A stretch of DNA of 62,618 nt from Solirubrobacteraceae bacterium (lineage in GTDB: Bacteria > Actinomycetota > Thermoleophilia > Solirubrobacterales > Solirubrobacteraceae), in assembly GCA_035706585.1 (NCBI GenBank), contig DASSUW010000451.1, positions 1 to 62,618 of the forward strand, written 5' to 3'. Positions within the stretch are counted from its first letter, which is position 1, and every line of letters begins with the position of its first letter. Positions 16,387 through 32,102 of the stretch are shown here, in pieces. A program made the translations under genes and the position numbers. Below the pieces are notes generated by a model. That model did no database searches. It was not told the origin of the DNA and saw nothing but the letters and a program-made list of their open reading frames with translations.

Positions 16387-16393
16387 GAGCGCG

Positions 16394-16888
16394 CTAGGCA
16401 GCGGCAACGTTCAGCGCGCGGATCGCGCGGCGGCGCTCGGCAGGCGTCGCGCGATCGAGCGTGAGGATGCCGTCGAGGTGGTCGATCTCGTGCTGGAGCA
16501 GGCTCGCGCCAAACCCTTCGACCTCGAGCGTGCGCGCGTTGCCGTCGATGTCATAGCCCTCGACGCGGACCGCCCGCGGCCGCTCGACCGCGACGGTGAT
16601 CGTGTTGAAGCTCAGGCAGCCCTCGCGGAACGTCTCACGCTCGTCGGAGCGCGCGACGACGCGCGGGTTGCACAGCGCCTCGATCTCGCACTCGGGCGCG
16701 AGCCGGAACACGAAGACCCGCCGCAGCAGCCCGACCTGCGTGGCCGCGAGCCCGGCCCCGTCGGCGGCCGCGAGCCGCCGCTGCATGCGCACGACCTGGC
16801 GGCGCAGGACGTCGTCGATCTCCTCGACGTCGCGGGCGGCGAGCCGGAGCGTGGGATCGCCCCATTGGCGGATCCAACCGTCGGGCAC
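16394..16888 (-). CDS. def: Peptide deformylase
   Basis: GLAATQVG, EGCLS and HEIDHLDG motifs. GTG start 16888. Confidence 0.9.
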   Translation of the reverse strand: MPDGWIRQWGDPTLRLAARDVEEIDDVLRRQVVRMQRRLAAADGAGLAATQVGLLRRVFVFRLAPECEIEALCNPRVVARSDERETFREGCLSFNTITVAVERPRAVRVEGYDIDGNARTLEVEGFGASLLQHEIDHLDGILTLDRATPAERRRAIRALNVAAA

Positions 16889-16903
16889 GCGTGCAGGCTA
16901 CCG

Positions 16904-16930
16904 GTGGGCGGTCGCAGGCTCGAACCGCGG
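16904..16930 (-). repeat. 27-nt copy (26/27) of the tRNA-Val 3' end (discriminator, acceptor 3' strand, T-arm)
   Basis: GTGGGCGGTCGCAGGCTCGAACCGCGG versus GTGGGCGGTCGCGGGCTCGAACCGCGG at 30493-30519, same orientation. No matching 5' tRNA half is adjacent. Confidence 0.75.
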
Positions 16931-17035
16931 GTCGAACGGGGGAATCTCCCATGCTCGTCGCGGGGAAGCCCCCTGGACTGCGGCGCGTCCGGCGGCCTAC
17001 GGTCATCCGGGACCTCGATCGAAGGAGACAGACGC

Positions 17036-19048
17036 GTGGGTGCCGCGGTCGCCCAGGATCTGAACGTGCTGTGGCAGCCGGTGCAGATCGGCGCCGTGAC
17101 GGTCGCCAATCGCATCTGCGTGTCGGCGCACCAGACGCACTATCCAGCGCGCGAGGGCGAGGTGATCGGCGACCGCTACGTCGCGTACATGGAGGCGCGC
17201 GCACGCGGCGGCGCCGGGCTGCTCGTCGTCGAAGCCGGTGCCGTGCACGAGAGCACCGCGAAGGTGGGCCTGATCGACCTCTACCGGGAGACGATCGTCC
17301 CCGGGCTGCGAACGCTCGGCGAGGCCGTCCACGCTCATGGCGCGAAGCTGTTCGCACAGCTCTCCCACCTCGGATCGCAGGACTTCGGCACGAGCGACCT
17401 CGACCGCTGGCACCCGGTGGTCGCGCCGACGCCCCTGCCGTCGACCGTCTATGGCCGGGTCGCCAAGGCGATCGACGAAGACGAGATCGCGGACATCGTC
17501 GCCGGGTACGGCCAGGCCGCCGCGCACGCGCGCGATGCAGGACTGGACGGTGCGGAGATCTCGGCCGGCCACGGGTACCTGATGTGCCAGTTCCTGTCGC
17601 CGCTGACGAACCGCCGGGACGACCGCTACGGCGGCAGCGTCGACAACCGCTGTCGGTTCGCGATCGAGGCGGCACGCGAGGTTCGGCGGCGTTGCGGGCG
17701 CGCCTTCGCGCTCGGGATCCGACTCAGCTTCGACGAGTTCGTCGGCGACGCGGGCCTGACGCCCGAGCTGTCCGAGGACATCGTGCGGACGTTGCACGCG
17801 AGCGGGATGTTCGACTACTTCAGCATCACCGGCGGCAACTACCACACGATTCACGAGTGGGCGCCGAACATCGCCGGCGGTCGCGACGGGCACCTCGCCC
17901 CACACGCCGAACGGGCGCGCGCTGCCTGCGCACAGGAGGTCCCCGTCATGGTCGCAGCGGCGATCCGGACCATCGACCGGGCAGCCGAGATCGTCTCGCG
18001 CGGGCAGGCGGATCTCGTCGCCATGATGCGCGCTCACATCGCCGATCCGGACATCGTCGCCAAGGCGCGCGCCGGTCGGCGGGAGGAGATCCGCCGCTGC
18101 GTCGGCGCCAACCAGGGCTGCCTGCGGCGGGCGTTCGCGAACGAGGGGATCACCTGCACGGTGAACCCGGCCGCCGGGCGCGAACGGACGCTCCCCGGCG
18201 CTGGCGGGGCCCTCGCTCCGCGAGACGTTCTCGTCGTGGGCGGCGGCCCTGCCGGGATGATGCTCGCCGAGACCGCCGCGCGGCGCGGCCACCGCGTGAC
18301 GCTGCTCGAGCAGGCCGAGCGGCTCGGCGGTCAGCTGCTACTGGCGGGGCGGCTCCCCGGCCGCGCGACATGGCTCGAGCTGGCGGACGACCTCGCCGCG
18401 TCACTCGAGCGACTCGGCGTCGACGTCCGCCTCGGCGTCGCGGCCGACGCGGAGCGCGTCGTCGCGGCGGGTCCAGACGCGGTCTACGTCGCCACGGGCT
18501 CGACGTTCGACGCTTCGGGCTACTCGATCTCGGCACCGCACCGCGACACGATCCCTGGCCTCAGCGGCGCCCATGTCCTTGACGCGGGGGCCGCGATCGC
18601 CGCGCCCGAGCACTGCGGCGCGCATGTCGTCGTGGTGGATGACAACAGCGACTACGTGCCGCTCGGCCTCGCGCTGCTGCTGGCCCGGACCGGCCGGACC
18701 GTCGAGCTGGTCACGCGGCACCTGCACGTCGGGAGCCGGCTGACGGCCACCGGCGACCTACCGTTCGCGCTGCCGCAGCTCGCAGCCGCCGGGGTCCGCG
18801 TCCACGCGCAGACCGTCGTCGTGCGGATCGAACCGGGCACCGTCACGGTCGCCGACGCGTGGGGCGGCGAGGAGGCCTCGCTGGTGGCGAACACCGTGGT
18901 TCTGTCGATGATGCGCAGGTCCGACGCCGCACTGGCGAGAGCCCTGGCGGAGCGCGGCGTCGCGGCGACGCTGGTGGGCGACTGCGTCGCCCCGCGGGAA
19001 GTCGACGACGCGATGTACGAAGGGCTCCGGCTGGGGCTGGCCGTCTAG
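17036..19048 (+). CDS. OYE-type NADH:flavin oxidoreductase fused to an FAD/NAD(P)-binding domain (2,4-dienoyl-CoA reductase-like)
   Basis: AQLSHLGSQ, GAEISAGHGYLMCQFLSPLTNRRDDRYGGS, Cys cluster RRCVGANQGC...[22 protein letters not shown] lies 8 nt before GTG 17036. Confidence 0.8.
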   Translation: MGAAVAQDLNVLWQPVQIGAVTVANRICVSAHQTHYPAREGEVIGDRYVAYMEARARGGAGLLVVEAGAVHESTAKVGLIDLYRETIVPGLRTLGEAVHAHGAKLFAQLSHLGSQDFGTSDLDRWHPVVAPTPLPSTVYGRVAKAIDEDEIADIVAGYGQAAAHARDAGLDGAEISAGHGYLMCQFLSPLTNRRDDRYGGSVDNRCRFAIEAAREVRRRCGRAFALGIRLSFDEFVGDAGLTPELSEDIVRTLHASGMFDYFSITGGNYHTIHEWAPNIAGGRDGHLAPHAERARAACAQEVPVMVAAAIRTIDRAAEIVSRGQADLVAMMRAHIADPDIVAKARAGRREEIRRCVGANQGCLRRAFANEGITCTVNPAAGRERTLPGAGGALAPRDVLVVGGGPAGMMLAETAARRGHRVTLLEQAERLGGQLLLAGRLPGRATWLELADDLAASLERLGVDVRLGVAADAERVVAAGPDAVYVATGSTFDASGYSISAPHRDTIPGLSGAHVLDAGAAIAAPEHCGAHVVVVDDNSDYVPLGLALLLARTGRTVELVTRHLHVGSRLTATGDLPFALPQLAAAGVRVHAQTVVVRIEPGTVTVADAWGGEEASLVANTVVLSMMRRSDAALARALAERGVAATLVGDCVAPREVDDAMYEGLRLGLAV

Positions 19049-19074
19049 CGAGCGTGCCCGGAGAGAGTCCCGCC

Positions 19075-21333
19075 GTGTCAAGGACAGAGACGCTTGCCGA
19101 CGAGCGGCTCGAGGGCCGGTATCTCGCGTTCGCCGGGCTGGCCAGCGCGCTACTGACGTGCTCGGACTGGTCGCGGCTGGCCACTGCCGTCTCGCGATCG
19201 CTGGGCGTGATCGGCGAGACGCCGCCGGTCCGCCTCTGGGCGATGACGCCGGATGGCCCGAGCGAGCTGGCGCGCCACCCGGGCGACCATCGGTTCGGCC
19301 GCCTGGCGCCCGGCGTCGTGAACCGCGCGGCGGCACTGGGTGATTCAACCGAGGCGGGCGGCGGCGGGCTTCTCGTCGGCCTTTATGCCGACGGCGTGAC
19401 GCTGGGCGTGCTCGAGGTCGGTGAGCTCCCGGACCGCGAGCTGCTCGAGCAGATCGCGCCGATCGTGGGACTCCGCTTCAGCGTGCTGGCCGGCCGAGGA
19501 GTGGGAGGCATCGCGTTCTCGCCACGAGCGATCGAGGAGTCGGGTGACGCGTCGGCGGTCATCTCCCAGTTCGCCCGCCAGGCGAAGCGACTCCTCGACC
19601 ACGATCGCCTGAGCGTGTACCTGATCACGCCGGACGGCCGGGCGTTCGAGCGCTTCGCCGTCGCGACTTCCGGCATCGTTCCCGGCGAGGGTGTGCTGAT
19701 CCCGTTCGAGGACGTCGGCCTGCGGCACATCGTCCTCACGAACCGGCCGCTCGTCTCCGAGGACATCGCCGCCGACGGGCGCATCGTCGGCCGCGAGGAT
19801 CGCGTGATCGCGCAGGCCGGCTTCCACAGTCTCGTGAGTGTCCCGCTGCGCCGCGACACACGTCCATTCGGGCTCCTGAACTTCGTGAGCCGCCAGCCGG
19901 GCTTCTACGGAACCCAGGACATTCCCGTCGCCCAGCAGATCGCCGACCAGATCGCCGCATTCGTCGAGCATCTGGGGTTCCAGCGACGCATGAGCACGTT
20001 CATCCGTCACGAGGCGACGGAGTGGACGCGAGCGCGTGTCACCCGCGATCTCTACCACCCGGTCGCGCAGGCGACGCCGGAGATCGCACGCGCGGCGTCC
20101 GAGCTCGAGCGCATGCTCGGGGACACCGCCGCCGCCGAGCAGGCGCGCCGGATCCGGGATCTCGCGCAGTTCGAGCTGGCCGACATCCGTCGCGCAGTGG
20201 TCGACCTCGACCCGCCGGGGCTGGAGACGCACACGCTCACCGAGATGATCGAGCTCGCGGTCGAGCGCTTCCGCGAGCGCGGGGACGCCACGCCGCGGCT
20301 GCGCATCCAGGGCGACACGGCGGGACTGGCGGCGATCGTGCCGCGCGCGACGTACCGGATCCTGCAGGAGACGCTGATGAACGTGGCGCTCCACGCACAC
20401 GCGACGACCGTCGACGTCCGCCTCAAAGTGGATCGCGATCTGCTCCTCACGATCGAGGACGACGGCGTCGGCTTCGACACGGCGGCGGCCGAGCAGGGCG
20501 ACGGTCTCGGCCTGCGGCACATGCACGAGCGTGCCGAGGCGCTCGGCGGGTTCCTGACCATCGAGAGCGAGCCGGCCGCGGGAACGCGGGTGGCCCTGAC
20601 GGTGCCGAGCGTCCGCGATGCCGTCGAGGCGGCGCCCGTCTCCGCCCCGCAGCTCGTCGCGACCACAAACGGCGAGCCGACGCTGCGCGTGTTCGTGGCC
20701 GCCGCGAACGCGCTGATGCGGGCGGGACTGTGCCGCGTGCTGGAGCACGACGAGCTGATGCGCGTCGTGGGCGAGGCGTCGACCGTTGACGAGTTGCGAG
20801 GCCAGGTTCGCCGGCTGCATCCCGACGTCATCGTGCTCGCGACGACGGCGACGAGCGACGGCGTGCGCGAGGTGCTCGAGGCGATCCGCGGCGACGTGCC
20901 GAACTCCGCCGTGCTGGCGGTCGTCGACGGCGACCGCCGGCACGCACGCGAGGTCGTAGACGCCGGCGCGAGCGGCGTCGTGCGCGCGACCACCGACGCC
21001 GGCGACCTTGTCCAGGCGGTGCGGACGGTGGCCACCGGAACCCGCGTCGTCCTGGGAGACGAGCCATCCGCGGGCGAGCCGTGTGAGCGGCTGAGCGCAC
21101 GTGAGCGCGAGATCCTCACCCTGCTCGCCGATGGGCGCACGAACGCGGAGATCGGCGACCGCCTGTTCCTGGCGGCGAAGACGGTCGAGCGGCACGTGTC
21201 GGTGATCGCACGCAAGCTGAACGCGCGCAACCGAGCGCACGCCGCGGCCATCGGCGTCGCACGCCAGCTCGTGTTGACAGATATGCTGGTATACCAAAAC
21301 GCCAAAATGCACGATGAGCGGAGGATCCGATGA
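19075..21333 (+). CDS. GAF-GAF-HisKA_3/HATPase-pseudoreceiver-LuxR HTH fusion protein
   Basis: GAF-like N-terminal halves. ATPase boxes ILQETLMNVALHAHA, EDDGVGFD, GLGLRHMHERAE. REC-like fold lacking the acidic pocket (VFVAAANALM; VIVLATTATSDG). LuxR HTH LSAREREILTLLADGRTNAEIGDRLFLAAKTVERHV. GTG 19075 follows GGAGAGAG. Confidence 0.75.
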   Translation: MSRTETLADERLEGRYLAFAGLASALLTCSDWSRLATAVSRSLGVIGETPPVRLWAMTPDGPSELARHPGDHRFGRLAPGVVNRAAALGDSTEAGGGGLLVGLYADGVTLGVLEVGELPDRELLEQIAPIVGLRFSVLAGRGVGGIAFSPRAIEESGDASAVISQFARQAKRLLDHDRLSVYLITPDGRAFERFAVATSGIVPGEGVLIPFEDVGLRHIVLTNRPLVSEDIAADGRIVGREDRVIAQAGFHSLVSVPLRRDTRPFGLLNFVSRQPGFYGTQDIPVAQQIADQIAAFVEHLGFQRRMSTFIRHEATEWTRARVTRDLYHPVAQATPEIARAASELERMLGDTAAAEQARRIRDLAQFELADIRRAVVDLDPPGLETHTLTEMIELAVERFRERGDATPRLRIQGDTAGLAAIVPRATYRILQETLMNVALHAHATTVDVRLKVDRDLLLTIEDDGVGFDTAAAEQGDGLGLRHMHERAEALGGFLTIESEPAAGTRVALTVPSVRDAVEAAPVSAPQLVATTNGEPTLRVFVAAANALMRAGLCRVLEHDELMRVVGEASTVDELRGQVRRLHPDVIVLATTATSDGVREVLEAIRGDVPNSAVLAVVDGDRRHAREVVDAGASGVVRATTDAGDLVQAVRTVATGTRVVLGDEPSAGEPCERLSAREREILTLLADGRTNAEIGDRLFLAAKTVERHVSVIARKLNARNRAHAAAIGVARQLVLTDMLVYQNAKMHDERRIR
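21287..21296. promoter_or_regulatory. Perfect palindrome TGGTATACCA, candidate GntR/FadR-type operator
   Basis: It lies 33 nt upstream of the VOC dioxygenase ATG, in an AT-rich stretch with TTGACA at 21274-21279. Confidence 0.4.
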
Positions 21334-22310
21334 GCGGCACTCAGCAGCAGGCGACGGGCATCTTCTGTCCACGACGTCTCGCGCATGCCAACCTCTTCGT
21401 GTCCGACCTCGAGGCGGCCCAGCGATTCTGGACCAGGACGGCGGGGTTGACCAAGGTGTTCGACGAGCCCGGCATCGGGGCGGTGTTCCTCTCGAACGGA
21501 GCGACGCACCACGACGTGGCGCTCATGGAGGTCTCCGATAAGCCGCGTATCGGCATCGGCGGTCATGTCCAGGTCTCGTCGGAGCGAGGGTCGCGGCCCG
21601 GCCTCAACCACCTGGGCTTCGAGATGGAGTCCGAGGCGGATCTCGTCGCCGCCTACCGGCGGTGCCAGGAGGCCGGCGTCGAGCTGCACCGTACGACCGA
21701 CCACAAGATCTCGCGCAGCATCTACCTGTTCGACCCCGACGGGAACTACGTCGAGTTCTACGCCGACGCGACCGACGACTGGCGCGAGACCTACCGCCGG
21801 AACGAAGGGAGCCTGATCAGCGAGCACTGGGACCCGCTGGCGCAGGACCCCGCCCGGTCTCCGCGCTATCAGGAGGACCCCGACATCGAGGCGCCTGAGG
21901 ACGCCGTCTTCAGGCCACGCCGGCTCGTGCACGCGGTGCTCGTCGTGTCTGACCTCGAGCGCCTCCTGACGTTCTATACCCAGGTCGCCGGGATGCGGCT
22001 CGTCCACGACCACCGGGACGACGGCTATGCCGTGCTCGCCGGGGCGAAGGGCGGGGTCGACCTCGCCCTCTTCTCCGCGACGGAGGGCCAGCCGCCCGGG
22101 CTGCACCATCTCGGCTTCGAGGTCGCGGACGCGGATGAGCTGTCCGCCTCGATCCGCCGCGCCCGCGAGCAGCTCGGCGACGACGCAGTCGACGATCTCG
22201 GCACCGGCGCCGCGGCCGCCGTCATCCGTGACCCCGACGGCATCGCGTGCAAGTTCTTCGCCCGCCGGCCCGACGACGGGGCGCCGGCGCCGGCGCCGTT
22301 CCTGCTCTAG
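21330..22310 (+). CDS. Two-domain VOC-family extradiol ring-cleavage dioxygenase-like protein
   Basis: HANLFVSDLE..., HHDVALME, NHLGFEM, IYLFDPDGNYVEFYAD, and a second repeat HHLGFEV. ATG overlaps the upstream stop (ATGA). Confidence 0.75.
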   Translation: MSGTQQQATGIFCPRRLAHANLFVSDLEAAQRFWTRTAGLTKVFDEPGIGAVFLSNGATHHDVALMEVSDKPRIGIGGHVQVSSERGSRPGLNHLGFEMESEADLVAAYRRCQEAGVELHRTTDHKISRSIYLFDPDGNYVEFYADATDDWRETYRRNEGSLISEHWDPLAQDPARSPRYQEDPDIEAPEDAVFRPRRLVHAVLVVSDLERLLTFYTQVAGMRLVHDHRDDGYAVLAGAKGGVDLALFSATEGQPPGLHHLGFEVADADELSASIRRAREQLGDDAVDDLGTGAAAAVIRDPDGIACKFFARRPDDGAPAPAPFLL

Positions 22311-23051
22311 ATGCGCTTCGGACGAATCGAGACCGCGGCCGGCGAGCGCCATGACGTCCGCTTCGTGGACGGCGTCGCACGGGCGAGTGACCGTGAGTGG
22401 CCGCTGGCCGACGTGCGGATCCTGCCGCCGGTCGAGCCCGGGAAGCTGATCTACGTCGGCATGAACTACCGCGATCACGCCGCCGAGCTCAACGCCCCCG
22501 TGCCGCAGGAGCCGCTGCTCTTCTTCAAACCGCGCACGGCCCTCATCAGCCACGAGCAGGCCGTCGTACGACCGCCGGGCACCACGCAGCTCGAGTACGA
22601 GGGCGAGCTGGCGGTCGTGATCGGCTCGCGCTGCCGGAACGTCGCGGAGGCCGACGCCGCCGGCGTCATCGCCGGCTACACGATCGCCAACGACATCACT
22701 GCGCGCGACTGGCAGCGGCTCGACAGCCAGTGGACCAAGGCCAAGAGCTGGGACACGTTCGCGCCGATCGGCCCGTGGATCGAGACCGAGCTCGATCCGC
22801 GGGACGTCGCGATCACGACCGTCGTCAACGGTCGGAAGCGCCAGCAGGGGTCGACGCGGCACCTGATCTTCGGGGTGCCGGAGCTCGTGGCCTACGCCTC
22901 GCGCGTGATGACGCTGGAGCCCGGAGACGTGATCTCGACCGGCACGCCACCCGGCGTCGGGCCCCTGGAGGTCGGCGACGCGGTCGAGGTGACGGTCGAC
23001 GGCATCGGCACGCTGCGCAACGTCATCGTGACCGAACCCGCAGAGGAGTGA
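22311..23051 (+). CDS. Fumarylacetoacetate hydrolase (FAH) family hydratase/hydrolase
   Basis: GMNYRDHA, EYEGELAVVIG, TKAKSWDTFAPIGPW, PGDVISTGTPPGVG. Confidence 0.85.
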   Translation: MRFGRIETAAGERHDVRFVDGVARASDREWPLADVRILPPVEPGKLIYVGMNYRDHAAELNAPVPQEPLLFFKPRTALISHEQAVVRPPGTTQLEYEGELAVVIGSRCRNVAEADAAGVIAGYTIANDITARDWQRLDSQWTKAKSWDTFAPIGPWIETELDPRDVAITTVVNGRKRQQGSTRHLIFGVPELVAYASRVMTLEPGDVISTGTPPGVGPLEVGDAVEVTVDGIGTLRNVIVTEPAEE

Positions 23052-23053
23052 AC

Positions 23054-23458
23054 ATGGCAGCATCAGTCCACAACCCCGACACGCTCGCCGCGCCGCTCGG
23101 GCTGTACTCCCACGTCGCCGAGGCGCGCGGCGCGCGGACGGTCACCATCGCGGGACAGGTCGGCGCTGACGCGTCGGGCGCGCTCGCCGGCCACGACGTC
23201 GGCGCGCAGACGCGACGCGCGTACGAGAACCTCGGCCTCGCCCTCGCGTCGGCGGGCGCGACGTGGCGGGACGTGGTGAAAATGACGACGTTCCTCGTCT
23301 CCGAGGAGCTCATCGAGCCGTTCATGGCCGCCCGGCGCGAGGTGTTCGCCGAGCTGTTTCCGGACGCCGCGTACCCGACGAACACGCTGCTCGTCGTCAG
23401 CCGGCTCGTGCATGCGGAGTTCCTCGTGGAGATCGAAGCCACGGCGGTGACCGACTGA
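23054..23458 (+). CDS. RidA/YjgF family enamine-imine deaminase-like protein
   Basis: 134 aa with TIAGQVG...VVKMTTFL...VEIEATA. GAGGAG precedes ATG 23054. Confidence 0.8.
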   Translation: MAASVHNPDTLAAPLGLYSHVAEARGARTVTIAGQVGADASGALAGHDVGAQTRRAYENLGLALASAGATWRDVVKMTTFLVSEELIEPFMAARREVFAELFPDAAYPTNTLLVVSRLVHAEFLVEIEATAVTD

Positions 23459-23459
23459 C

Positions 23460-24614
23460 ATGCGGCGGCGAGCCGCCGTAGCGGGAGGCGGGATCGCCGG
23501 GATGGCGGCCGCCGGCGCGCTTGCGCGGCACGGCTTCGAGGTCTGCGTGCACGAGCGGGCGCCCGGACTGCGCGAGCTCGGCGCCGGCATCTATCTCAAG
23601 GAGAACAGCCTGCGCGTCCTCGATCAGCTCGACGTCTACGAACGGCTCGAGGCGCGCGCCGTCCGGTTGGCCGAGACCCGTCTGCGGACCGAGGGCGGGC
23701 GACTGGTCCTGACCAGACGCGTCGCCCGCGAGCGCACGCTCGTGGCTCTGCGGGAGGACCTGCATGCGCTGCTCACAGAGGCCGCGGAGGCCGCCGGAGC
23801 GGAGATCCGCACACGCTCGCGCGTCGAGACCGCCGCCCCGAGCGGCGCGCTGACCCTGCAGGGCGGCCGCGAGGCCGACCGGCCGGACCTCGTCGTCGGC
23901 GCTGACGGGCTGCACTCGCGCGTTCGCACGACGGCGGGCATCGACGGCCGCGTGCGCATCCTCGCCGACGGCGCGACGCGGCTGCTGATCCCCCGCACGG
24001 AGACGCAGCCGGTGAGCACGGAGCACTGGTCGGGGCGCCTGCGGGTGGGCGTGACCCCGTGCTCGCCGGACCAGACGTACGTGTTCCTCATCGGCCCGGA
24101 GTCCGACGAGCACGCCCGGCGGCTCCCCGTCGACACGGAGTACTGGCTGCGCTCGTTCCCGTACCTCGGTGAGGTCTTCGAACGCGTCGTCGGAGCCGAG
24201 GGGACGCACCATCCGCACGCGCTCGTCGAGTGCTCGCGCTGGACGCGCGGACGCATCGCGCTCGTCGGCGACGCCGCGCACGCACAGCCGCCGAACCTCG
24301 GCCAGGGAGCCGGCCTGGCGATCGCCAACGCGTGGGCGCTCGCCCGGACGCTCCAGCCGAGCGACACCGTCGAGGCCGGGCTCGCCGCATGGGAGGCGCA
24401 GAACTTCCCGCTCAGTCGGCGCGTGCAGCGCTGGTCGCACCGCTACGGGCTGGCCGGGCATCGGTGGCCGCCGCGCCTGCACGGCGCCCGCACGGCGACC
24501 CTCTGGGTGATCGGGCACTCCCCATACACTCGTGACCAATGGGCATGGCTCTGGCGTGGCGGCGTCTCCGACGGGGACCAGCCGGCTCGGTCAACATGGA
24601 CTGAAACCGCATGA
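23460..24614 (+). CDS. FAD-dependent aromatic-ring monooxygenase (hydroxylase)
   Basis: GGGIAGMAAAGALARHG dinucleotide fold. ALVGDAAHAQPPNLGQGAGLAIANA. Confidence 0.8.
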   Translation: MRRRAAVAGGGIAGMAAAGALARHGFEVCVHERAPGLRELGAGIYLKENSLRVLDQLDVYERLEARAVRLAETRLRTEGGRLVLTRRVARERTLVALREDLHALLTEAAEAAGAEIRTRSRVETAAPSGALTLQGGREADRPDLVVGADGLHSRVRTTAGIDGRVRILADGATRLLIPRTETQPVSTEHWSGRLRVGVTPCSPDQTYVFLIGPESDEHARRLPVDTEYWLRSFPYLGEVFERVVGAEGTHHPHALVECSRWTRGRIALVGDAAHAQPPNLGQGAGLAIANAWALARTLQPSDTVEAGLAAWEAQNFPLSRRVQRWSHRYGLAGHRWPPRLHGARTATLWVIGHSPYTRDQWAWLWRGGVSDGDQPARSTWTETA

Positions 24615-25303
24615 CTTCCGAGATCCCGTCACCGGCGTCCCCGCGCCCCGAGCCGAGGCAGCTCGCGCGCGTGACGCTCGCGCAGGCGGCCGCCGACGCG
24701 GTGCGCGAGATGATCATGCTCGGCGAGCTGCCGGTCGGCTCGCGCATCCGCCAGCGCGAGCTGGCGGCTCAGCTGCGCGTGAGCCGTACGCCGATGCGAG
24801 AGGCGCTGAGCAAGCTGGCGAGCGAAGGGCTGATAAGGACGGACCCCAGCGGCCAGGCGATCGTCTGCCGTCCGTCGGTCGAAGAGCTCGAGGAGCTCTA
24901 CGAGATCCGCCAGTTGCTCGAGGGGCAGGCGGCCGCGCACGCGGCCGAGCACCGGCGCCCCGAGGACGTCGAGCGCTTGCGGCGCATCGTCGCCAGCCTC
25001 GACCATGCGCCGTCGGCGGATGCCTGGGTCCGCCTCAACGCGGAGTTCCACACCGCGCTGTACCGGCTGGCGCAGCGGGCCGAGCTCGTCCGCCTGATCG
25101 ACTCACTGCGGATCCGCACGGAGGTCTACGTCCGGATCCTCGTCGAGACCGGCAGCTCGGACGAGGCCCAGCAGGACCACCGCGACATCGTCGCGGCGCT
25201 CGACGCCGGTGACGCAGACAAGATCCGCTCGCTCGTCCACAAGCACCTGCGCCACACGCGCGACCGGGTCGCAGCCGTGATCCGGTCGCAGGGCGGCAGC
25301 TGA
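24611..25303 (+). CDS. GntR family regulator, FadR/FCD subfamily
   Basis: HTH RELAAQLRVSRTPMREALSKLASEGLI plus an all-helical C-terminal domain. ATGA overlap with the upstream gene. Confidence 0.85.
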   Translation: MTSEIPSPASPRPEPRQLARVTLAQAAADAVREMIMLGELPVGSRIRQRELAAQLRVSRTPMREALSKLASEGLIRTDPSGQAIVCRPSVEELEELYEIRQLLEGQAAAHAAEHRRPEDVERLRRIVASLDHAPSADAWVRLNAEFHTALYRLAQRAELVRLIDSLRIRTEVYVRILVETGSSDEAQQDHRDIVAALDAGDADKIRSLVHKHLRHTRDRVAAVIRSQGGS

Positions 25304-25309
25304 CCGGCC

Positions 25310-26212
25310 ATGACCGGCGTCGCTTCCCTGCCGGCGGCCGCGCACGGCCTGTGGCCCGCGGTGATGTGCGCGGGGCTGTCGTTCCGGCAGTGGTGGATCG
25401 AGGTCGACGGCGTGGCGACCCGCTGCCTCGAGGCCGGCTCGCCCGATGCGCCACCGGTCGTGTTCCTTCACGGCGTCGGCGGCCACCTCGAGGCGTTCCA
25501 CCGCAACCTCGCGGTCCACGCGGCGCGCTATCGGGTGGTCGCGTACGACCTGCCGGGCCACGGGCTGAGCACGTTCGATCCCGGACGGTCGTACGAGATC
25601 GACGGCTACGTGCGCCACCTCGAGGCGCTGCTCGACGCGCTCGACATCAGCTCGGTGGCGCTGAGCGGACTCTCGCTCGGGGGGTGGATCGCGGCGCGCT
25701 TCGCCGCCTCCCGCACCGACCGCGTCGCGGCGCTCGTGCTCAACGGGACCGGGGGAGCGACGTTCGACGAGCGCGTCATGGCAGACATCAAGCGGCTCTC
25801 GAGCGCCGCAACGACGACGCCGGACGGCGACGCCGTGACCGCACGGCTGCGCTGGCTGATGGCGGACCCGGCCAGCGTGTCAGTGGACCTCGTCGAGGCC
25901 CGGCGCGTCATCTATGCGCAGCCGCACATGGGCGCCGCGATGCGCCGCATCCTCTGCCTACAGGAGCCGGCCGTCCGCCGCCGCAACCTGATCGCACCCG
26001 AGGAGTGGGCCGCCATCGCCGCGCCCACGCTCATCATCTGGGGCGATCGCGACCCGACGGGCCTGCCGGCGATCGCGCACGGCATCGCCGAGGGGATCCC
26101 GGACGCGCGCGTCGAGGTACTGGCCGACTGCGGGCACTGGGCCCAGTTCGAGCGGGCCGACCGCTTCAACGCCCTCCAGCTCGAGTTCCTGGGCGCGGCG
26201 TATCCCAGCTAG
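25310..26212 (+). CDS. Alpha/beta hydrolase, meta-cleavage-product hydrolase-like
   Basis: VVFLHGVGGH, nucleophile elbow GLSLGG, GDRDP, CGHWAQFE. Confidence 0.75.
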   Translation: MTGVASLPAAAHGLWPAVMCAGLSFRQWWIEVDGVATRCLEAGSPDAPPVVFLHGVGGHLEAFHRNLAVHAARYRVVAYDLPGHGLSTFDPGRSYEIDGYVRHLEALLDALDISSVALSGLSLGGWIAARFAASRTDRVAALVLNGTGGATFDERVMADIKRLSSAATTTPDGDAVTARLRWLMADPASVSVDLVEARRVIYAQPHMGAAMRRILCLQEPAVRRRNLIAPEEWAAIAAPTLIIWGDRDPTGLPAIAHGIAEGIPDARVEVLADCGHWAQFERADRFNALQLEFLGAAYPS

Positions 26213-27259
26213 CTAGGCGGCAGCGCCCTGCAGCTTGCATAGCCGCGCGAGGTTGCCGCTCCAGATCTGCTCCGCTTCCTCCTCGGTCACGTCCATCGCC
26301 GCGACGGCATCGCGCGAGCGCTCGATCAACCAGCGGCCGTCCTGGGCGTCGTACGGGGCGTCGCTGCCGAACACGATCTGGCCGGCACCGAAGAACGACT
26401 CGACGTTCATCAGCGTGTTGACGTTGCCGATCCCGGCCGTATCGGCGTAGATCCGCCGGAATCCCTCGAGCAGGGGACGCGTGTCCGTGGCCGGCTCGTA
26501 GTGCGTGTAGGGCAGCCAGTCGTCGGCGTACAGGACCTCGATCCGCGGGACGAAGAACGGGATCATCCCGCCGCCGTGGTGAGCGATCACGTTGAGCTTC
26601 GGGTACTTCTCGAGCACGCCGCCGAGCACCAGCGCCGTCAGCGCGACGGAGGTCTCGTACGGCCAGCCGAACGTGTACCAGCTCAGGTGGGACGAGGTCC
26701 GGTCCGGCCCGATCCCGGGGAGGACGGTGGAGCGCCACGGATGCACCCAGATCGGCGCCTCCAGTTCGTTCGCGGCCGCGAACACGCCGTCGAGCTCCGG
26801 CGCGTCGAACGCCGGCGAGCTCGGCGCGGCGAACAGGACGACGCCGACCAGGCCGAGCTCCTCGACGCAGCGCCGCAGCTCGCGCGCAGCCACGTCGGGG
26901 TCGTGCATCGAGAGCATGCCGACGCCGAGGAACCGGTCCGAGTGCTCCCGCACCGCGGCCGAGAGCGTCTCGTTGGCGATCGCCGCGAGCTCGACGCTGT
27001 GGTCGCCGTGGAAGAAGGCCTCGAGCGGGGGCACGGGGGGCGTGACCACCTGCATGTCGATCCCGAGGTCGTCGAGGTCCGCGATGCGCTTCTCGATGTC
27101 CGTGAGCCCACGCAACGTCTCCCACATCTCGAACGCCGACCGGGCGCCGGCCATCGCGGCCTCGGTCTCGGCCAGCAGCGTGCCGTCGCGGCGCACGCGC
27201 TCGAGGACGGCGCTGCGGTACTCCAGCGGCAGCAGGTGGGCAAACGCGTCGATCTTCAT
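26213..27259 (-). CDS. Amidohydrolase_2 family protein (ACMSD / non-oxidative aromatic decarboxylase-like)
   Basis: MKIDAFAHLLP..., VIAHHGGGMIPFF, FGSDAPY. AAGGGGA lies 7 nt before ATG 27259. Confidence 0.7.
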   Translation of the reverse strand: MKIDAFAHLLPLEYRSAVLERVRRDGTLLAETEAAMAGARSAFEMWETLRGLTDIEKRIADLDDLGIDMQVVTPPVPPLEAFFHGDHSVELAAIANETLSAAVREHSDRFLGVGMLSMHDPDVAARELRRCVEELGLVGVVLFAAPSSPAFDAPELDGVFAAANELEAPIWVHPWRSTVLPGIGPDRTSSHLSWYTFGWPYETSVALTALVLGGVLEKYPKLNVIAHHGGGMIPFFVPRIEVLYADDWLPYTHYEPATDTRPLLEGFRRIYADTAGIGNVNTLMNVESFFGAGQIVFGSDAPYDAQDGRWLIERSRDAVAAMDVTEEEAEQIWSGNLARLCKLQGAAA

Positions 27260-27287
27260 GAGCAGATCCCCTTGTCAAGCGGCATCT

Positions 27288-27309
27288 TGGTATGCCAGAA
27301 TGCTGGCAT
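27288..27309. promoter_or_regulatory. TGGTATGCCA (9/10 to TGGTATACCA) overlapping the inverted repeat ATGCCAG-AATG-CTGGCAT
   Basis: It lies 29 nt upstream of the amidohydrolase start, the same geometry as the 21287 site. Confidence 0.35.
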
Positions 27310-27468
27310 TCCCCGGTGGCACCGGCCTCGCGGCCGCCGCGAGGCGTTTGTCACAGTCCGTGTCGGTGACATGTTCACTGACCTCGTTGCCCTGTCATCA
27401 AAAATGCGGACGGCGAGTCACAGTGATGGTGTGGTCCGCTGCGCTTTCACCCAAGGGTGAATATGCGC

Positions 27469-27945
27469 TCAGCGCACCTTCCACACTGATGTAATCGCCG
27501 TCGGCACACCCATCGGAAGCTCTGCGACACCGACAGTGATCCGTGCGCAGAGCGCGACGTCCTCGCCCCACAAATCTGACCAGAGATCCGTGCTGCCGTT
27601 GCCGACCTCGATGAACTCGGCCGGGTAGCCCTCGACGAGGTTCACATAGTTCACCTGCGAGAGCGGCCGGACGACGCGCTCGAGCGACCCGAGCTCGTCC
27701 TTGAGCGTGCGCAGGATCGCAAGCGCCGTGACGCGGTTGGCCTCGTAGCCCTGTTCGATCGTCAGGTCGCGCCCGACCTTGCCCTGGAAGCGAGGGGATC
27801 CGTCGACGAACGGGCCGTGGCCGGCGAGGTGGACCACGTCCCCGTCGCGGACGGCCCAGCGGTACTTCGTCACCGTGGCCTGCGAGCGGGGGAGCTCGAA
27901 GCCGAGCTCCCCCAACCGGCCGACCACTGCGTCGGCGTCAGCCAC
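27469..27945 (-). CDS. RidA/YjgF-like family protein (second copy)
   Basis: 158 aa from GTG 27945, which overlaps the SBP stop by 8 nt. HLAGHGPF...GKVGRDLTIEQGYEANR...ITVGVAELPMG resembles the YjgF fold. Confidence 0.6.
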   Translation of the reverse strand: MADADAVVGRLGELGFELPRSQATVTKYRWAVRDGDVVHLAGHGPFVDGSPRFQGKVGRDLTIEQGYEANRVTALAILRTLKDELGSLERVVRPLSQVNYVNLVEGYPAEFIEVGNGSTDLWSDLWGEDVALCARITVGVAELPMGVPTAITSVWKVR

Positions 27946-29074
27946 TCCAGGCCTCCGCCTGCTGCTTGATCTCGTCGCGGTCGTAGTCCGACCACTCGGC
28001 GATGATGTCCTTGACCTGCTGCGTGCCGATGATCTCGTTGACGTCGAGCGGTTCCTTGAGCTGCTTCGTCTCCGCGAGGATGTCGGCGGCGGTCTGCCAG
28101 CCCTCGACGGATGGCTCGCCGTACGGAGTGTCCGTCTGCCCGAGCTCGGCCCCGACCGGCGTGAGCAGCTCGAGCCGCTTGTCCATGTAGGACTTGGCGA
28201 AGTCGCGGTCGGTGCAGTCCTCCGGGAACTGGTTGCAGCCGATCTCGAGCGCAGCGTCTGGATTGGACGTGGCGAACAGGTTGCCCTTCGACCACGCACG
28301 CGCGATCCGGATGACGATGTCGCGCTGCTCGGGGTCGTTCAGCGTCTCCTCCTTCGCGTGGAGGCAGTCGCCGGGGATCGCGGCGTACTTCTCCGGGGTG
28401 ATGTCCACGAGGTCGGCACCCGATGCCTGGAGGCCCAGGATGTCGGTGTAGGCCGACGCGTAGCCGGCCACCCTGCCGGTATCGATCGCCCGCCGGGCCG
28501 CCGGGCCCGACCCGCCGATCGCGAGCAGCTTGACGTCCTCGCCGGCCTTGAGGCCGGCGTCCTGGAGCGCCGACTCCACCATCGGGCCCTCGCCGCCTCC
28601 CACCTCCGAGATGCCGAGCTCCTGGCCGGCGAATCCGGCGACTTCCGTGATGCCGCTCGGCCTGGACGCCGTGATGCCGAAGATGTTGCGCGAGGTCATG
28701 CAGAACACGGCGCGGATCGACGGGTCGGCCTGATGCGCCAGCATCACCGCGGTGGCGGCGGCCATGCCATAGGGCGCGTTGCCGGCGATGATCTGCTGGG
28801 TGACGAAGTCCGAACCGTCCGTGGCCTGCGACTCCACCTCGAGCTTCTCCTGCTCGAGGAAGCCCTCTGAGCGAGCGGTCGGCAGGCCGATCCAGGCGGG
28901 GCCTTCCGGCGACGACAGCAGGAGCGTCGTCTCAGCGGGCTGCGGCGCGCCGTTCTGCGCGGCGCCACTGGCCTTGTCCCCCTCTCCGGCGTCGTCATCT
29001 CCACAGGCTGCGAGCACGAGCACGCAGCCGCTGAGCACTGCGAAGAGGTAGCGGCGTATCGACATCCCTCCCAC
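27938..29074 (-). CDS. Lipoprotein, NMT1/THI5-like ABC-type substrate-binding protein (orphan)
   Basis: Lipobox VLVLAAC after MSIRRYLFAVLSG. Periplasmic-binding-like body. No permease or ATPase gene is nearby. Confidence 0.6.
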   Translation of the reverse strand: MGGMSIRRYLFAVLSGCVLVLAACGDDDAGEGDKASGAAQNGAPQPAETTLLLSSPEGPAWIGLPTARSEGFLEQEKLEVESQATDGSDFVTQQIIAGNAPYGMAAATAVMLAHQADPSIRAVFCMTSRNIFGITASRPSGITEVAGFAGQELGISEVGGGEGPMVESALQDAGLKAGEDVKLLAIGGSGPAARRAIDTGRVAGYASAYTDILGLQASGADLVDITPEKYAAIPGDCLHAKEETLNDPEQRDIVIRIARAWSKGNLFATSNPDAALEIGCNQFPEDCTDRDFAKSYMDKRLELLTPVGAELGQTDTPYGEPSVEGWQTAADILAETKQLKEPLDVNEIIGTQQVKDIIAEWSDYDRDEIKQQAEAWSG

Positions 29075-29090
29075 CTTTCGGTGTGAACTC

Positions 29091-29131
29091 CATGCTTCTC
29101 ACCGTAAATGCATGCGCGATGAGAAGACATG
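29091..29131. promoter_or_regulatory. Inverted repeat CATGCTTCTCA-N18-TGAGAAGACATG in an AT-rich divergent intergenic region
   Basis: Read directly. 11-bp arms with a 1-nt bulge. The spacer contains ATGCATGC. Confidence 0.25.
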
Positions 29132-29246
29132 CAGGAAACGAGTTGACAGCGATCCGATGCTACGGTTCTGACCCGGTCACCGCACCGGGAGATTCCCTCA
29201 TGTTTTCGAGGGTTTCACCCCGGGCGCTGCCGCGTACTATTGCGGC

Positions 29247-30470
29247 CTGACGACGGCGGTCTTCACTCCGGCGACGATCGGGCGGCTCGAGGTCCGCAAC
29301 CGCTTTGTGCGGTCGGCGACCGCCGAGGCGATGGCCGACGAGCACGGTGCCGTGACACCGGGACTGATCGCGCTGCACCAGACCCTGGCCGGCGCCGATG
29401 TCGGGCTGATCATCTTCGGGCACCTGTTCTGCCACCCGCGCGGGCGCTATGGGCCGGGCCATGTCGGGATCCACGACGACGCGATGCTGCCGGGCCTGGC
29501 TGCGCTCGCGCATGAGGTGCGCACGCGCGGTGCTCGCATCTTCGCGCAGCTGACGCATGCCGGCAGCCAGTCGCGACTCGCCGCCGTGGACCCGCTCGCG
29601 CCGTCGCCGGTGCCCAACGCGCTCACCGGGCGCCCGGTCTCCGGCGCATCGGAGGACGAGATCGGCGAGGCCATCGCCTCGTTCGGCGCCGGCGCCCGCC
29701 GTGCCGTCGAGGCGGGATTTGACGGTGTCCACATCCATGCGGCCAACGGCTACCTGATCAGCGAGTTCTCGTCGCCGCTCGCCAACCGGCGCACCGACCG
29801 GTGGGGCGGCTCGGCCGAGAACCGCGACCGCTTCGTGCTCGAGGTCCTCCGCGCCGTTCGCCGTGCGGTGCCCGCGGGCTTCCCGGTCAGCGTCAAGCTC
29901 GGTCTCGCCGACGCCGTCCCCGGCGGCCTCGACCTGGACGAGACGCTGCCCCGCGCCCGCCGGCTCGTCGAGGCGGGCGCCGACGCGATCGAGGTCTCGG
30001 TGAACGTCATGGCGCGTCCGGCGGACTCGGCGCGCACGTACGTGGCCGTGGATCGCCGGCGCGCGATCATGGACCTCCTGCCGCACCGGGTGCTGGCCGG
30101 GCCCGTCGCCGAGGCCTACAACGCGCCGCTGGCGCGGGCGCTGCGCGGCGCCGTCGACACGCGCATCATCCTCGTCGGCGGGCTGCGCACCACGGCGACG
30201 CTGAGCCGTGTCATCGAGTCGGGCGACGCCGACTTCGTCGCCATGGCGCGGCCGTTCATCCGCGAGCCCGACATCGTCCGGCAGATCGCGAACGGGCGGA
30301 CTGGACGCGTGGACTGCACGTCATGCAACCTGTGCCTGGCGCACGGTGGCCACCACACGCTGCGCTGCTGGCGGACGCCGCGCCGGCATCTGCTCGACCA
30401 CGCGTTCTACCGGCTCAAGGGCGGCCTGCGGCCGACGCTGTTCCGCGGGCACCCTCCAGATCAAGACTGA
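29247..30470 (+). CDS. Old Yellow Enzyme family NADH:flavin oxidoreductase
   Basis: FTPATIGRLEVRNRFVRSATAE, AQLTHAGSQ, GFDGVHIHAANGYLISEFSSPLANRRTDRWGGS, MARPFIREPD. The conserved N-terminus lies upstream of the first canonical start (GTG 29307). CTG 29247 is only a proposal. Confidence 0.7.
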   Translation: MTTAVFTPATIGRLEVRNRFVRSATAEAMADEHGAVTPGLIALHQTLAGADVGLIIFGHLFCHPRGRYGPGHVGIHDDAMLPGLAALAHEVRTRGARIFAQLTHAGSQSRLAAVDPLAPSPVPNALTGRPVSGASEDEIGEAIASFGAGARRAVEAGFDGVHIHAANGYLISEFSSPLANRRTDRWGGSAENRDRFVLEVLRAVRRAVPAGFPVSVKLGLADAVPGGLDLDETLPRARRLVEAGADAIEVSVNVMARPADSARTYVAVDRRRAIMDLLPHRVLAGPVAEAYNAPLARALRGAVDTRIILVGGLRTTATLSRVIESGDADFVAMARPFIREPDIVRQIANGRTGRVDCTSCNLCLAHGGHHTLRCWRTPRRHLLDHAFYRLKGGLRPTLFRGHPPDQD

Positions 30471-30493
30471 AGGCGCGCAGGCTGTGCGATCAG

Positions 30494-30567
30494 TGGGCGG
30501 TCGCGGGCTCGAACCGCGGACCTCCTGCTTGTAAGGCAGGCGCTCTGACCAGCTGAGCTAACCGCCC
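30494..30567 (-). tRNA. tRNA-Val (TAC)
   Basis: Hand-folded: acceptor GGGCGGT/ACCGCCC, anticodon arm CCTGC-CTTACAA-GCAGG, T-arm CGCGG-TTCGAGC-CCGCG. Confidence 0.9.
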
Positions 30568-30580: not shown

Positions 30581-31669
30581 CTAGAGCGCTCCGGCGAGGA
30601 CGTCGGCGAGCGCGAACGGCGCCGGCTGCTCGAGCTGGGCGTAGTTGCACGAGGCGGGGTCGCGGTCGGGGCGCCAGCGGACGAACTGCGGCGGGTGGCG
30701 GAAGCGCGCTCCCTCGAGGTAGTCGTAGCGGACCTCGACCACGCGCTCGGGACGCAGCGGGACGAACGAGAGGTCCTTCTTCGGGTTCCAGCGGCTGCCG
30801 CCCTCGGGTCCCTGGCTCATCTCCGCGGCCCAGTGCCACGGGTGGTCGGCGAACGAGATCACGAGCGGCTGGAGCTCGGCGAGCAGCTCGCGCCGGCGAG
30901 CCATCGGGAACGCGCCGATGACGCCGACCGGGGCAAGGTGGCCCATGTGCTGGTCCATCCACTGCGACGGCGGCGCGGCCTCGTCGACGTAGAGGCCGAG
31001 CAGCAGCGAACCGATCGCGTCCTTGTGCGCCTTGTGCACGCGGTAGCCGGCGACGACGCAGTCGGCCGTGCGGACGTGCTTGATCTTCGCCATCACGCGC
31101 TTGTCCGGTTGGTAGGTGAGGTCCGCGCGCTTGGCGATCAGCCCGTCGAGGCCGGCGCCCTCGAACCGCTCGAACCAGCGCCGGGCGACGGCCTCGTCGC
31201 GCGTGAGCGGCGTCACGTGGATCGGTGCGCGCGCGTCGGCCAGCGCGGCCTCGAGCGCCGCGCGGCGGTGCGCGAACGGCGTGCCCGTGAGGTCGTCGTC
31301 GCCGAGCGCCAGCAGGTCGAACGCGACGAAGCTCGCCGGCGTCCTGGCGGCGAGCATCGTCACGCGGCTGTTCGCCGGGTGGATGCGCTGCTGGAGCGCC
31401 CAGAAGTCGAGCCCGCCGTCGCCGGCGATCACGATCTCGCCGTCGATCACCGCCCGTTCCGGGAAGCTGCGCTTGACCGCCTCCACCACCTCGGGGAAGT
31501 AGCGCGTCATCGGCCGCTCGTTGCGGCTGCCGATCTCGACCTCGTCGCCGTCGCGGAACACGATCGAGCGGAACCCGTCCCACTTGGGCTCGTAGAGCTG
31601 GCCGGGCGGGATCGCGCCGACGGGCTTCGCGAGCATCGGCGCGACGGGCGGCATGACGGGCAGGTTCAT
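30581..31669 (-). CDS. ligC: Stand-alone ATP-dependent DNA ligase (LigC type)
   Basis: MNLPVMPPVAPMLAKP...YEPKWDGFR (motif I KxDG), GLDGLIAKR, KIKHVRTADCVV. 362 aa. Confidence 0.85.
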   Translation of the reverse strand: MNLPVMPPVAPMLAKPVGAIPPGQLYEPKWDGFRSIVFRDGDEVEIGSRNERPMTRYFPEVVEAVKRSFPERAVIDGEIVIAGDGGLDFWALQQRIHPANSRVTMLAARTPASFVAFDLLALGDDDLTGTPFAHRRAALEAALADARAPIHVTPLTRDEAVARRWFERFEGAGLDGLIAKRADLTYQPDKRVMAKIKHVRTADCVVAGYRVHKAHKDAIGSLLLGLYVDEAAPPSQWMDQHMGHLAPVGVIGAFPMARRRELLAELQPLVISFADHPWHWAAEMSQGPEGGSRWNPKKDLSFVPLRPERVVEVRYDYLEGARFRHPPQFVRWRPDRDPASCNYAQLEQPAPFALADVLAGAL

Positions 31670-31757
31670 CGCATGGCGATTGTGCCGCCCACGAGCGGCA
31701 GGCGGAGCGTGCCGCGCGACGGGTCGTGCGCCGGCGCACAGCGTTGCGGCTGCCATC

Positions 31758-32102
31758 ATGCGCGCGATGGATCGCTCGATCGCCTGGCGCTCGGCGCTGC
31801 TGCAGGCGCTGCTGGTGGGGTGTGTCGCGGTGGTGCTCGGGCTGGCCCTGCCGCGATCGTTCTTCGAGGACTGGGGCTGGCTCGCCGGACCGGCCGCGTG
31901 GGGCGGCTGCGCGCTGGTGGTCGCCGGCGCGCTGCGGCTGCCGTGGGCGCTGGTCGTCGTCGGCGCGGGGCTGTCGGGCCTGCTGATGCTGCCGGGCGTG
32001 CTGGTGGGAGCCCACTGGCTCGGCGCGCCGTTGGGCCTGGCGGCGTTCGGCGCCTGGTGCGGATGGCTCGCGGGGCGGCGACGGGTCGTGGCGGTCGCCT
32101 GA
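31758..32102 (+). CDS. Hypothetical integral membrane protein (~114 aa)
   Basis: Three or four hydrophobic segments. The TGA overlaps the next ATG (TGATG). Confidence 0.5.
   Translation: MRAMDRSIAWRSALLQALLVGCVAVVLGLALPRSFFEDWGWLAGPAAWGGCALVVAGALRLPWALVVVGAGLSGLLMLPGVLVGAHWLGAPLGLAAFGAWCGWLAGRRRVVAVA

Follow-up and report, generated by a model that had tools for sequence, protein, structure and literature searches.

Gene content of the interval between def and tRNA-Val

This analysis concerns a 13.6-kb block of catabolic genes situated between the peptide deformylase gene def and a tRNA-Val(TAC) gene in a Solirubrobacteraceae bacterium (GenBank assembly GCA_035706585.1, contig DASSUW010000451.1; the whole stretch of 62,618 nt is called the window). 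The block is bracketed by two nearly identical copies of the tRNA-Val 3' end and is in our view a likely genomic island, inserted site-specifically into the tRNA gene. Its genes were called by GC3-guided open reading frame (ORF) prediction and then assigned with Pfam, which is the source of each line below unless another is named. L081, L082 and L083 are related loci treated further on; attL and attR denote attachment (att) sites at the two ends of an integrated element.

16394..16888, minus strand: def (peptide deformylase), flanking core gene with a GTG start
16904..16930, minus strand: putative attR, the displaced original tRNA-Val 3' end (26/27), followed by the ancestral downstream flank CGGTAGCCT (sequence and L082/L083 alignment)
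16931..30492, no strand: probable island, 13,562 bp, 12 genes, no mobility genes (BLAST breakpoints and Pfam)
17036-19048, plus strand: FadH-like protein of 670 aa, an Old Yellow Enzyme (OYE)/FMN oxidoreductase with a fused FAD/NAD(P)-binding domain (Pfam Oxidored_FMN and Pyr_redox_2)
19054-21333, plus strand: regulatory fusion protein that combines GAF, histidine-kinase ATPase, receiver and LuxR (GerE) domains
21330-22310, plus strand: two-domain VOC extradiol-type dioxygenase
22311-23051, plus strand: FAH-family hydrolase
23048-23458, plus strand: RidA
23460-24614, plus strand: FAD monooxygenase
24611-25303, plus strand: GntR/FCD regulator
25310-26212, plus strand: alpha/beta hydrolase
26213-27259, minus strand: Amidohydro_2 decarboxylase-like protein
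27469-27945, minus strand: YjgF-like protein
27938-29074, minus strand: NMT1/THI5-type solute-binding protein, without permease or ATPase partner
29307-30470, plus strand: second OYE-type flavoprotein
30493..30567, minus strand: tRNA-Val(TAC), intact; putative attL is its final 27 nt, 30493-30519 (ARAGORN)
30581..31669, minus strand: LigC-like ATP-dependent DNA ligase, core gene at the other side of tRNA-Val (upper end approximate, from the 362-aa gene of L081)

The 12 genes are those named in a preliminary description made from the sequence alone. Its statement that integrase, excisionase, transposase and transfer genes are absent likewise agrees with Pfam, both for the block and for the full 62.6-kb contig. 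Signature genes of the integrative and conjugative elements of actinomycetes (AICEs), i.e., a tyrosine integrase with or without Xis, RepSA/RepAM/Prim-Pol and FtsK-like Tra, gave no Pfam match among the 12 genes, and tBLASTn detected in the window no homologues of two integrases that are linked to tRNA-Val att sites elsewhere (loci L086 and L095, see below). The intergenic gaps of the block measure only 105, 209, 232 and 22 bp and therefore leave no space for a concealed integrase pseudogene. At the right-hand end, the stop codon of the second OYE gene lies 22 nt from the tRNA-Val 3' end. The real start of the GAF/LuxR fusion is possibly downstream of 19054.

The repeat pair and the tRNA-Val gene

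The two repeat copies, 16904-16930 (GTGGGCGGTCGCAGGCTCGAACCGCGG) and 30493-30519 (GTGGGCGGTCGCGGGCTCGAACCGCGG), lie on the same strand and are identical at 26 of 27 positions, just as the preliminary description reports. The sole mismatch (16916 versus 30505) falls in the 3' strand of the T-stem, where the tRNA has C and the fragment T. The interval between the copies, 16931-30492, measures 13,562 bp (13,563 bp in the preliminary description). ARAGORN and Rfam both call the tRNA-Val intact, the Rfam match covering 30494-30567 of the minus strand at 71.9 bits. In tRNA orientation the 27-mer takes in the last variable-loop base, the entire T-arm and the 3' acceptor strand, as well as the discriminator and a single base beyond it; the preliminary description had assigned 30493-30519 to discriminator, acceptor strand and T-arm of the minus-strand tRNA-Val(TAC). 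The fragment at 16904-16930 has no 5' tRNA half beside it, again as first described.

With up to three mismatches allowed, the 27-mer occurs twice in the window and in none of 100 dinucleotide-preserving shuffles. Short-word BLAST with the whole tRNA revealed no further tRNA-Val fragment in the window, and the same search found there no second copy of the 3' part of tRNA-Asp, tRNA-Glu or tRNA-Lys. The remaining direct repeats of the window are GC-rich noise of low identity. The Lys, Glu, Val and Asp tRNA genes of the region are clustered and all lie on one strand (ARAGORN), and the tRNA-Val is identical in sequence to those of L081 and L082.

GTTCGA/TTCGAC motifs resembling the T-loop core are present just inside the fragment (window 16931-16950) and likewise at 4848-4880 of the viral contig L095. 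These additional motifs could be core-type binding sites of an integrase, or they could be there by chance.

The site in related genomes

When genomes were scanned at species level with def, the window fell within Solirubrobacteraceae, and a protein search followed by gene-context look-ups gave the related loci L081-L083. Two of these, L082 (NCBI GCA_036278035.1) and L083 (ENA ERZ25039511), share about 88-92% DNA identity with the window and have an ancestral empty site. Ligase, tRNA-Val, 17 nt and def are directly adjacent in them, without any block. The preliminary description had proposed that the block was acquired as one unit and had asked for relatives in which def adjoins tRNA-Val; this arrangement, with the def start 17 nt past the tRNA 3' end (L082 2337-2430, L083 4221-4314; compare window 16886-16930), supports the proposal.

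The junction in L082 and L083 reads ...GACCGCCCA TCGGTAGCCT...GTG, and the window fragment is directly followed by CGGTAGCCTGCACGCGTG. The flank CCCA(T/C)CGGTAGCCT is common to the window and both relatives, with TCGGTAGCCT as the shared stretch. In BLAST alignments the last 26 nt of the L082/L083 tRNA together with def match window 16930-16393 at 88-90% identity. Because the fragment and its flank align with the tRNA end and def of these relatives, the fragment is the original tRNA 3' end, displaced. On the integration model, the 3' end of the present tRNA-Val would correspondingly have been supplied by the insert.

The closest locus is the 11,998-bp contig L081 from a JGI metagenome, which matches the flanks of the window at 99.45% over 6,017 bp and 99.36% over 5,917 bp (BLAST). 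This 99.4% identity on both flanks in a locus without the block is further support for an island. Window positions 16914-30490 are missing from L081, and in their place are 64 nt (L081 6018-6081) located between an intact tRNA-Val and a 10-nt remnant, GACCGCCCAC, of the displaced tRNA end. Neither the island nor any fetched locus contains a match for these 64 nt. We therefore reject the explanation that L081 derives from the island by simple deletion. The island is thus polymorphic at roughly species level, and L081 bears a different scar rather than a clean excision product. The 64-nt insert itself points to an independent insertion that was almost wholly erased.

The island is absent from L081, L082 and L083, and likewise from L001, the closest species representative (def 84% identical). 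The gene order of the latter is purH, TetR, tRNA-Lys, tRNA-Glu, tRNA-Val, def and, later, tRNA-Asp. Only 2.2 kb of unrelated DNA separate its tRNA-Val from def, called as patatin and acyltransferase genes in the related locus L084. Homology between L001 and the window breaks off precisely where the tRNA has its 3' end, at window 30492, and restarts at window 16901, 3 nt from the fragment. Overall, the BLAST breakpoints against the window fall at 30491/30492 and 16913/16901 and coincide with the repeat. In L002-L029, further relatives from the genome scan whose def identity does not exceed 68%, tRNA-Val is absent from the surrounding 10 kb, and they are uninformative on the site.

Other occupants of the tRNA-Val/def site

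Close relatives carry other DNA at the same site. In L084 (def 85% identical) tRNA-Val is followed by a 5.7-kb island, likewise without an integrase, then by a perfect 43-nt tRNA fragment, the patatin and acyltransferase genes and def. L085 has a different occupant of 1.1 kb. L086 (def 80% identical) possesses an AICE module of the pSAM2 type upstream of def, which encodes a GntR regulator, RepSA (PF20199), a Xis-like protein with an HTH_17 domain and a tyrosine integrase. The integrase reaches 30.7 bits against PF00589 (cut-off 27.1 bits) when its frames are stitched across frameshifts; the single-frame ORFs of the region have no Pfam match. It is followed by a 42-nt tRNA-Val fragment and, after 3 kb of sequence, by a second, degenerate one of about 50 nt; def lies about 1 kb beyond. 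These tandem tRNA fragments represent accretion, and with at least five states among close relatives the tRNA-Val/def junction is an integration hotspot of fast turnover.

The L086 integrase gene (4467-5832) is broken by at least three frameshifts, which are either errors of a long-read assembly or the marks of a true pseudogene.

An integrase with a comparable att site is also found on L095, an IMG/VR viral contig with 71% GC. Its tyrosine integrase has 438 aa (PF00589, E = 3e-14), and 228 nt downstream of the gene there is a tRNA-Val fragment some 30 nt long. The core of this fragment is identical to the window repeat, and its extent, from near the T-stem, is nearly equal. The P-arm regions of the window and L095 share 8-nt matches only.

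In one clade, the acyltransferase gene stands directly upstream of def (L001 7762-9990, L084 7790-10020, L086 about 9277-9990), accompanied in L001 and L084 by the patatin gene. The TAG stop codon of the acyltransferase gene lies inside the conserved GTAGCCT motif, which follows the tRNA in the empty-site genomes. This insert lacks a tRNA duplication, which indicates a different kind of event.

Cargo of the block

The cargo appears as a coherent but trimmed catabolic cluster, whose substrate is probably a hydroxylated aromatic or N-heteroaromatic acid. All NCBIfam matches to the island proteins remain below cut-off, and the functional call is therefore limited to aromatic or heteroaromatic catabolism. 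In a protein search, the nearest homologues of the central monooxygenase are 75-84% identical and belong to clusters of the same gene order, while a scan of JGI metagenomes with this protein returned only paralogues with 26-33% identity. The locus L093 matches window 21349-27258 and 27469-29083 at 77-81% DNA identity. The six-gene run 21330-26212 is syntenic with L093 (77% DNA identity) and also with the two closest cargo relatives, the P0122 and P0123 contigs from JGI, which were compared by their gene tables. In the P0123 contig the OYE-FAD gene heads the cluster, and an ortholog of the GAF/LuxR fusion is present.

In related clusters, about 5.5 kb with hydantoinase A/B genes separate the Amidohydro_2 gene from the YjgF-like gene, and the NMT1 binding-protein gene is adjoined by ABC permease and ATPase genes (L093 7139-12662; L096 3082-5968). 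In the window neither the hydantoinase A/B genes nor the ABC permease and ATPase genes are present at 27260-27468 and 27938-29074, and the binding protein is an orphan. The missing partner genes suggest that the window cargo is a trimmed copy. A ferredoxin-domain gene follows the binding-protein gene in L093, rather than the OYE gene and tRNA-Val. The fetched 14.5 kb of L093 contain no tRNA gene, and no tRNA-Val is seen at the visible end. When plasmids were searched with 7.7 kb of cargo, the FAH gene alone gave matches (65-69% identity). The island as such was not found in another genome, neither at the same nor at another tRNA-Val; its nearest cargo homologues, at 77-84%, are in different contexts.

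Origin of the island

We interpret 16931-30492 as a horizontally acquired genomic island, probably integrated site-specifically into tRNA-Val by a tyrosine integrase and subsequently decayed to a remnant resembling a cis-mobilizable element (CIME). The repeat, the insertion polymorphism, the empty ancestral site, the lack of mobility genes and the integrase-bearing occupants of the site in relatives are direct observations; the type of integrase, the loss of a mobility module and the substrate are deductions. Under this interpretation, the chromosomal tRNA-Val 3' end (attB) would have recombined with an attP carrying the same 26-27 nt. Recombination would have rebuilt the intact tRNA at one end of the insert (attL, 30493-30567) and moved the original tRNA 3' end (attR, 16904-16930), together with its native flank and def, over a distance of 13.6 kb. 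The enzyme would most likely have been a tyrosine integrase of the type found in actinomycete integrative elements and temperate phages. Its gene and the transfer module may then have been deleted, or they may have disappeared when a tandem helper element excised. What remains would be cargo between two recognisable att sites, which could move only with the help of a compatible integrase acting in trans. The layout of the repeats is the B-O-P' ... P-O-B' order expected of attP x attB recombination, as established for site-specific recombination and as described for AICEs in PMC2440964.

Several observations weigh against this interpretation. The island retains no relic integrase, excisionase, replication or transfer gene, and we therefore infer descent from a self-mobile element by analogy with L086 and L084. 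Its ends are tight to the cargo genes, with 22 nt on the tRNA side and 105 nt on the fragment side, which leaves little space for the arm-binding sites of an integrase. The att repeats of the L086 AICE measure 42 nt (anticodon-loop type) and not 27 nt; that AICE is therefore not the direct parent. The composition check recommended in the preliminary description went against the expectation for foreign DNA. The island has 71.3% GC compared to 72.7% in the flanks, and its tetranucleotide distances (13.9-21.4 in island windows, 9.8-21.3 in flank windows) overlap with those of the flanks. A donor of similar composition fits this absence of deviation. Finally, neither the L081 comparison nor the searches of viral contigs yielded a clean excision product or a circular junction. 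The circular junction was predicted as ...CCCCCGTTCGAC-CCGCGGTTCGAGCCYGCGACCGCCCAC-TGATCGCACAGCC... and the repaired attB as tRNA-Val followed by CGGTAGCCTGCACGCGTG; the predicted attP junctions (P-arm with core, core with P'-arm) had no matches in viral contigs.

The preliminary description left the block as either decayed and locked in, or mobilised in trans by an unknown mechanism. An integrase-less remnant agrees with the former, but the mystery was overstated. Elements that keep attL and attR but have no integrase are already known as a class under the name of CIMEs and move through accretion with a helper element (PMC5704250, PMC9513070; the definition is given in PMC5704250), and accretion is found at this very site in L086. 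The block may never have owned the enzyme that inserted it, or it may have lost it.

The first of these two options leads to the alternative that the island is an active CIME, which never needed an integrase of its own and still excises and transfers, either in tandem with an AICE, ICE (integrative and conjugative element) or phage helper of tRNA-Val specificity or in trans. Its att sites are nearly intact (26/27), the AICE of L086 has accreted with integrase-less segments at the same site, and L084 contains a second island without an integrase between perfect repeats. Moreover, the viral contig L095 encodes an integrase whose att site is of the matching T-arm type, the site turns over quickly, with two states at 99.4% flank identity, and cis-mobilisation is documented in other bacteria (PMC5704250, PMC9513070). 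On the other hand, the 62.6-kb contig contains no helper integrase, neither a circular junction nor a precise empty site within the species was found, the island was found in no other genome, its nearest cargo homologues (77-84%) reside in other contexts, and the arm regions are very short. We consider ongoing mobility possible, but unlikely. A more far-reaching version, which we regard as doubtful, would be a still-mobile metabolic cassette without a recombinase, moved among strains of the little-studied family Solirubrobacteraceae by AICE or phage integrases that target the same tRNA-Val T-arm, with def cut off from its ancestral co-transcription with the tRNA and driven by the island end instead. 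If true, the tRNA-Val/def junction would be a natural "landing pad" at which at least five cargoes are exchanged among close relatives.

Alternatively, the island might have arrived by homologous recombination with a conspecific carrier, anchored on the ligase/tRNA-Val and def sides, with the repeat dating from an older event in the donor line. Flanks that are 99.4% identical between carrier and non-carrier make allelic replacement mechanically easy, and the composition is the same as that of the host. Such an exchange accounts for spread but not for origin, since attL and attR still require an original site-specific integration, and no second carrier genome was found as donor. We judge this route improbable.

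Least probable of all is that the 27-mer is unrelated to an insertion, being a relic of a pseudo- or duplicated tRNA-Val, one copy of a tRNA-derived repeat that is dispersed, or the point at which a misassembly was joined: the clustering of Lys, Glu, Val and Asp tRNA genes on one strand speaks for it, but the window holds two copies only and no other tRNA fragment, the fragment occupies the exact position of the tRNA 3' end in L082/L083 with the same downstream flank, and both homology breakpoints coincide with the repeat. A dispersed 27-mer, which the preliminary description had named as a finding that would speak against an island, and a duplicated pseudo-tRNA are rejected on the copy number and on the ancestral position of the fragment. 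A repeat of 27 nt with one mismatch is shorter than the usual final k-mer size of assemblers. We reject an assembly chimera for this reason, and because a fragment without a tRNA 5' half marks a true junction and the breakpoints match the repeat. A duplication that equals a tRNA 3' end is a signature of att recombination. A composite transposon, or target-site duplication by an insertion sequence, is rejected as well, for there is no transposase and the 27-nt duplication is the tRNA 3' end.

Consequences for def and neighbouring genes

The fragment is spaced 15 nt from the def start, as first described. It did not, however, come to sit there with the insertion, since the position is ancestral and occupied by the whole tRNA in relatives. 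The 17-nt spacing in L082 and L083 suggests that tRNA-Val and def were ancestrally co-transcribed, and the insertion would then have severed def from this presumed transcription unit. Because the island genes beside def run divergently, any new def promoter must lie within 16889-17035, fragment included. A consensus scan of 16700-17200 found no sigma-70 promoter or terminator, a weak test at 72% GC. The fragment may plausibly be part of the def promoter region. The def protein of L081 is identical except for the translation of its start codon.

In the remainder of the contig Pfam shows core genes, among them purD, purE, purB, purC, purL, purF, purN and purH, and further dnaK, grpE, dnaJ, a MerR-type regulator, clpB, recQ and pfk (all Pfam). 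A second variable segment lies directly downstream of def (window 14691-16413). The window and L081 have a GGDEF/HD-GYP gene there, and other relatives hold 3.9-5.3 kb of unrelated genes (L001 10476-14357, L082 2923-8211, L083 4811-9105), so that def is a conserved gene flanked by two variable segments.

Beyond tRNA-Val, a 687-aa ORF (30581-32644, minus strand) is over-extended. The real LigC-like ligase has about 362 aa, as called in L081, and two plus-strand genes, one for a 114-aa protein (31758-32102) and one for an SDR (about 32100-32854), overlap the upstream part of the ORF. On either side of tRNA-Asp (8790-8864) lies an ORF with calcium-binding repeats of the RTX type (window 7253-9722). 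The first of these two ORFs runs into the tRNA gene, and its 3' end is thus probably miscalled; the second contains a tandem 54-nt repeat family, D1.

Comparison with known systems

The locus displays how a catabolic cluster was inserted among core housekeeping genes (pur genes, def, pfk and the dnaK operon) of an uncultured soil lineage of Solirubrobacteraceae. It reveals no new mechanism, but represents a clean if ordinary decayed island at an insertion hotspot. As a worked example of an integrase-less island with surviving att sites and an available ancestral empty site, it can be of use for the annotation of metagenome-assembled genomes and for tests of cis- and trans-mobilisation in Actinomycetota outside Streptomyces.

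The island resembles CIMEs in being bounded by a target-gene 3' end and a direct repeat, in the absence of integrase, excisionase and transfer genes, and in having kept attL and attR as 27-nt repeats with one mismatch; its site, too, shows tandem accretion with a functional-looking element in the relative L086. Unlike CIMEs, it has no residual ICE or AICE gene that would point to descent from a conjugative element, its cis-mobilisation is hypothetical, and its host is a Solirubrobacteraceae actinobacterium and not a firmicute.

Classical tRNA islands, such as catabolic islands and the Mesorhizobium symbiosis island at tRNA-Phe, as far as they are cited in PMC9513070, share with the window island the insertion at a tRNA, the direct repeat, the metabolic gene cluster and the patchy presence. 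The window island differs in having no integrase beside the tRNA and no deviation in composition, and it is small (13.6 kb). Among the features by which tRNA islands are recognised, a mobility gene and deviant composition are thus missing here, whereas patchy presence and a tRNA 3'-end repeat with an intact tRNA are found.

For AICEs, att identity segments over tRNA 3' ends and tandem arrangements are described in PMC2440964, and decay, accretion, empty sites in sister strains and a possible cis-mobilisation of remnants in PMC9513070. The decayed AICEs and ancient traces at Streptomyces tRNA hotspots (PMC9513070) and the AICE remnants and tandem AICEs at tRNA-Arg (PMC2440964) parallel our island in their actinobacterial host and their tRNA 3'-end target. 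Further parallels to the Streptomyces remnants are repeats of tens of nucleotides, close strains with other occupants or empty sites, lost mobility genes and adaptive cargo. Such remnants, however, usually keep traB, rep, int or kor (PMC9513070, PMC2440964), none of which is kept in the purely catabolic island, and their repeats are 44-93 nt long (PMC9513070, PMC2440964), in contrast to the 27-nt, T-arm-type repeat here.

A further comparison is offered by the pSAM2-type AICE of L086. Its att identity extends over 42 nt from the anticodon loop, compared to 27 nt from the T-stem in the window, and the window island has no Int, Xis, RepSA, Kor or Tra; the AICE signature genes missing from it are present in L086 at the same site. 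Both nevertheless share the same tRNA-Val target and orientation logic, and in both the displaced tRNA fragment is found on the def side.

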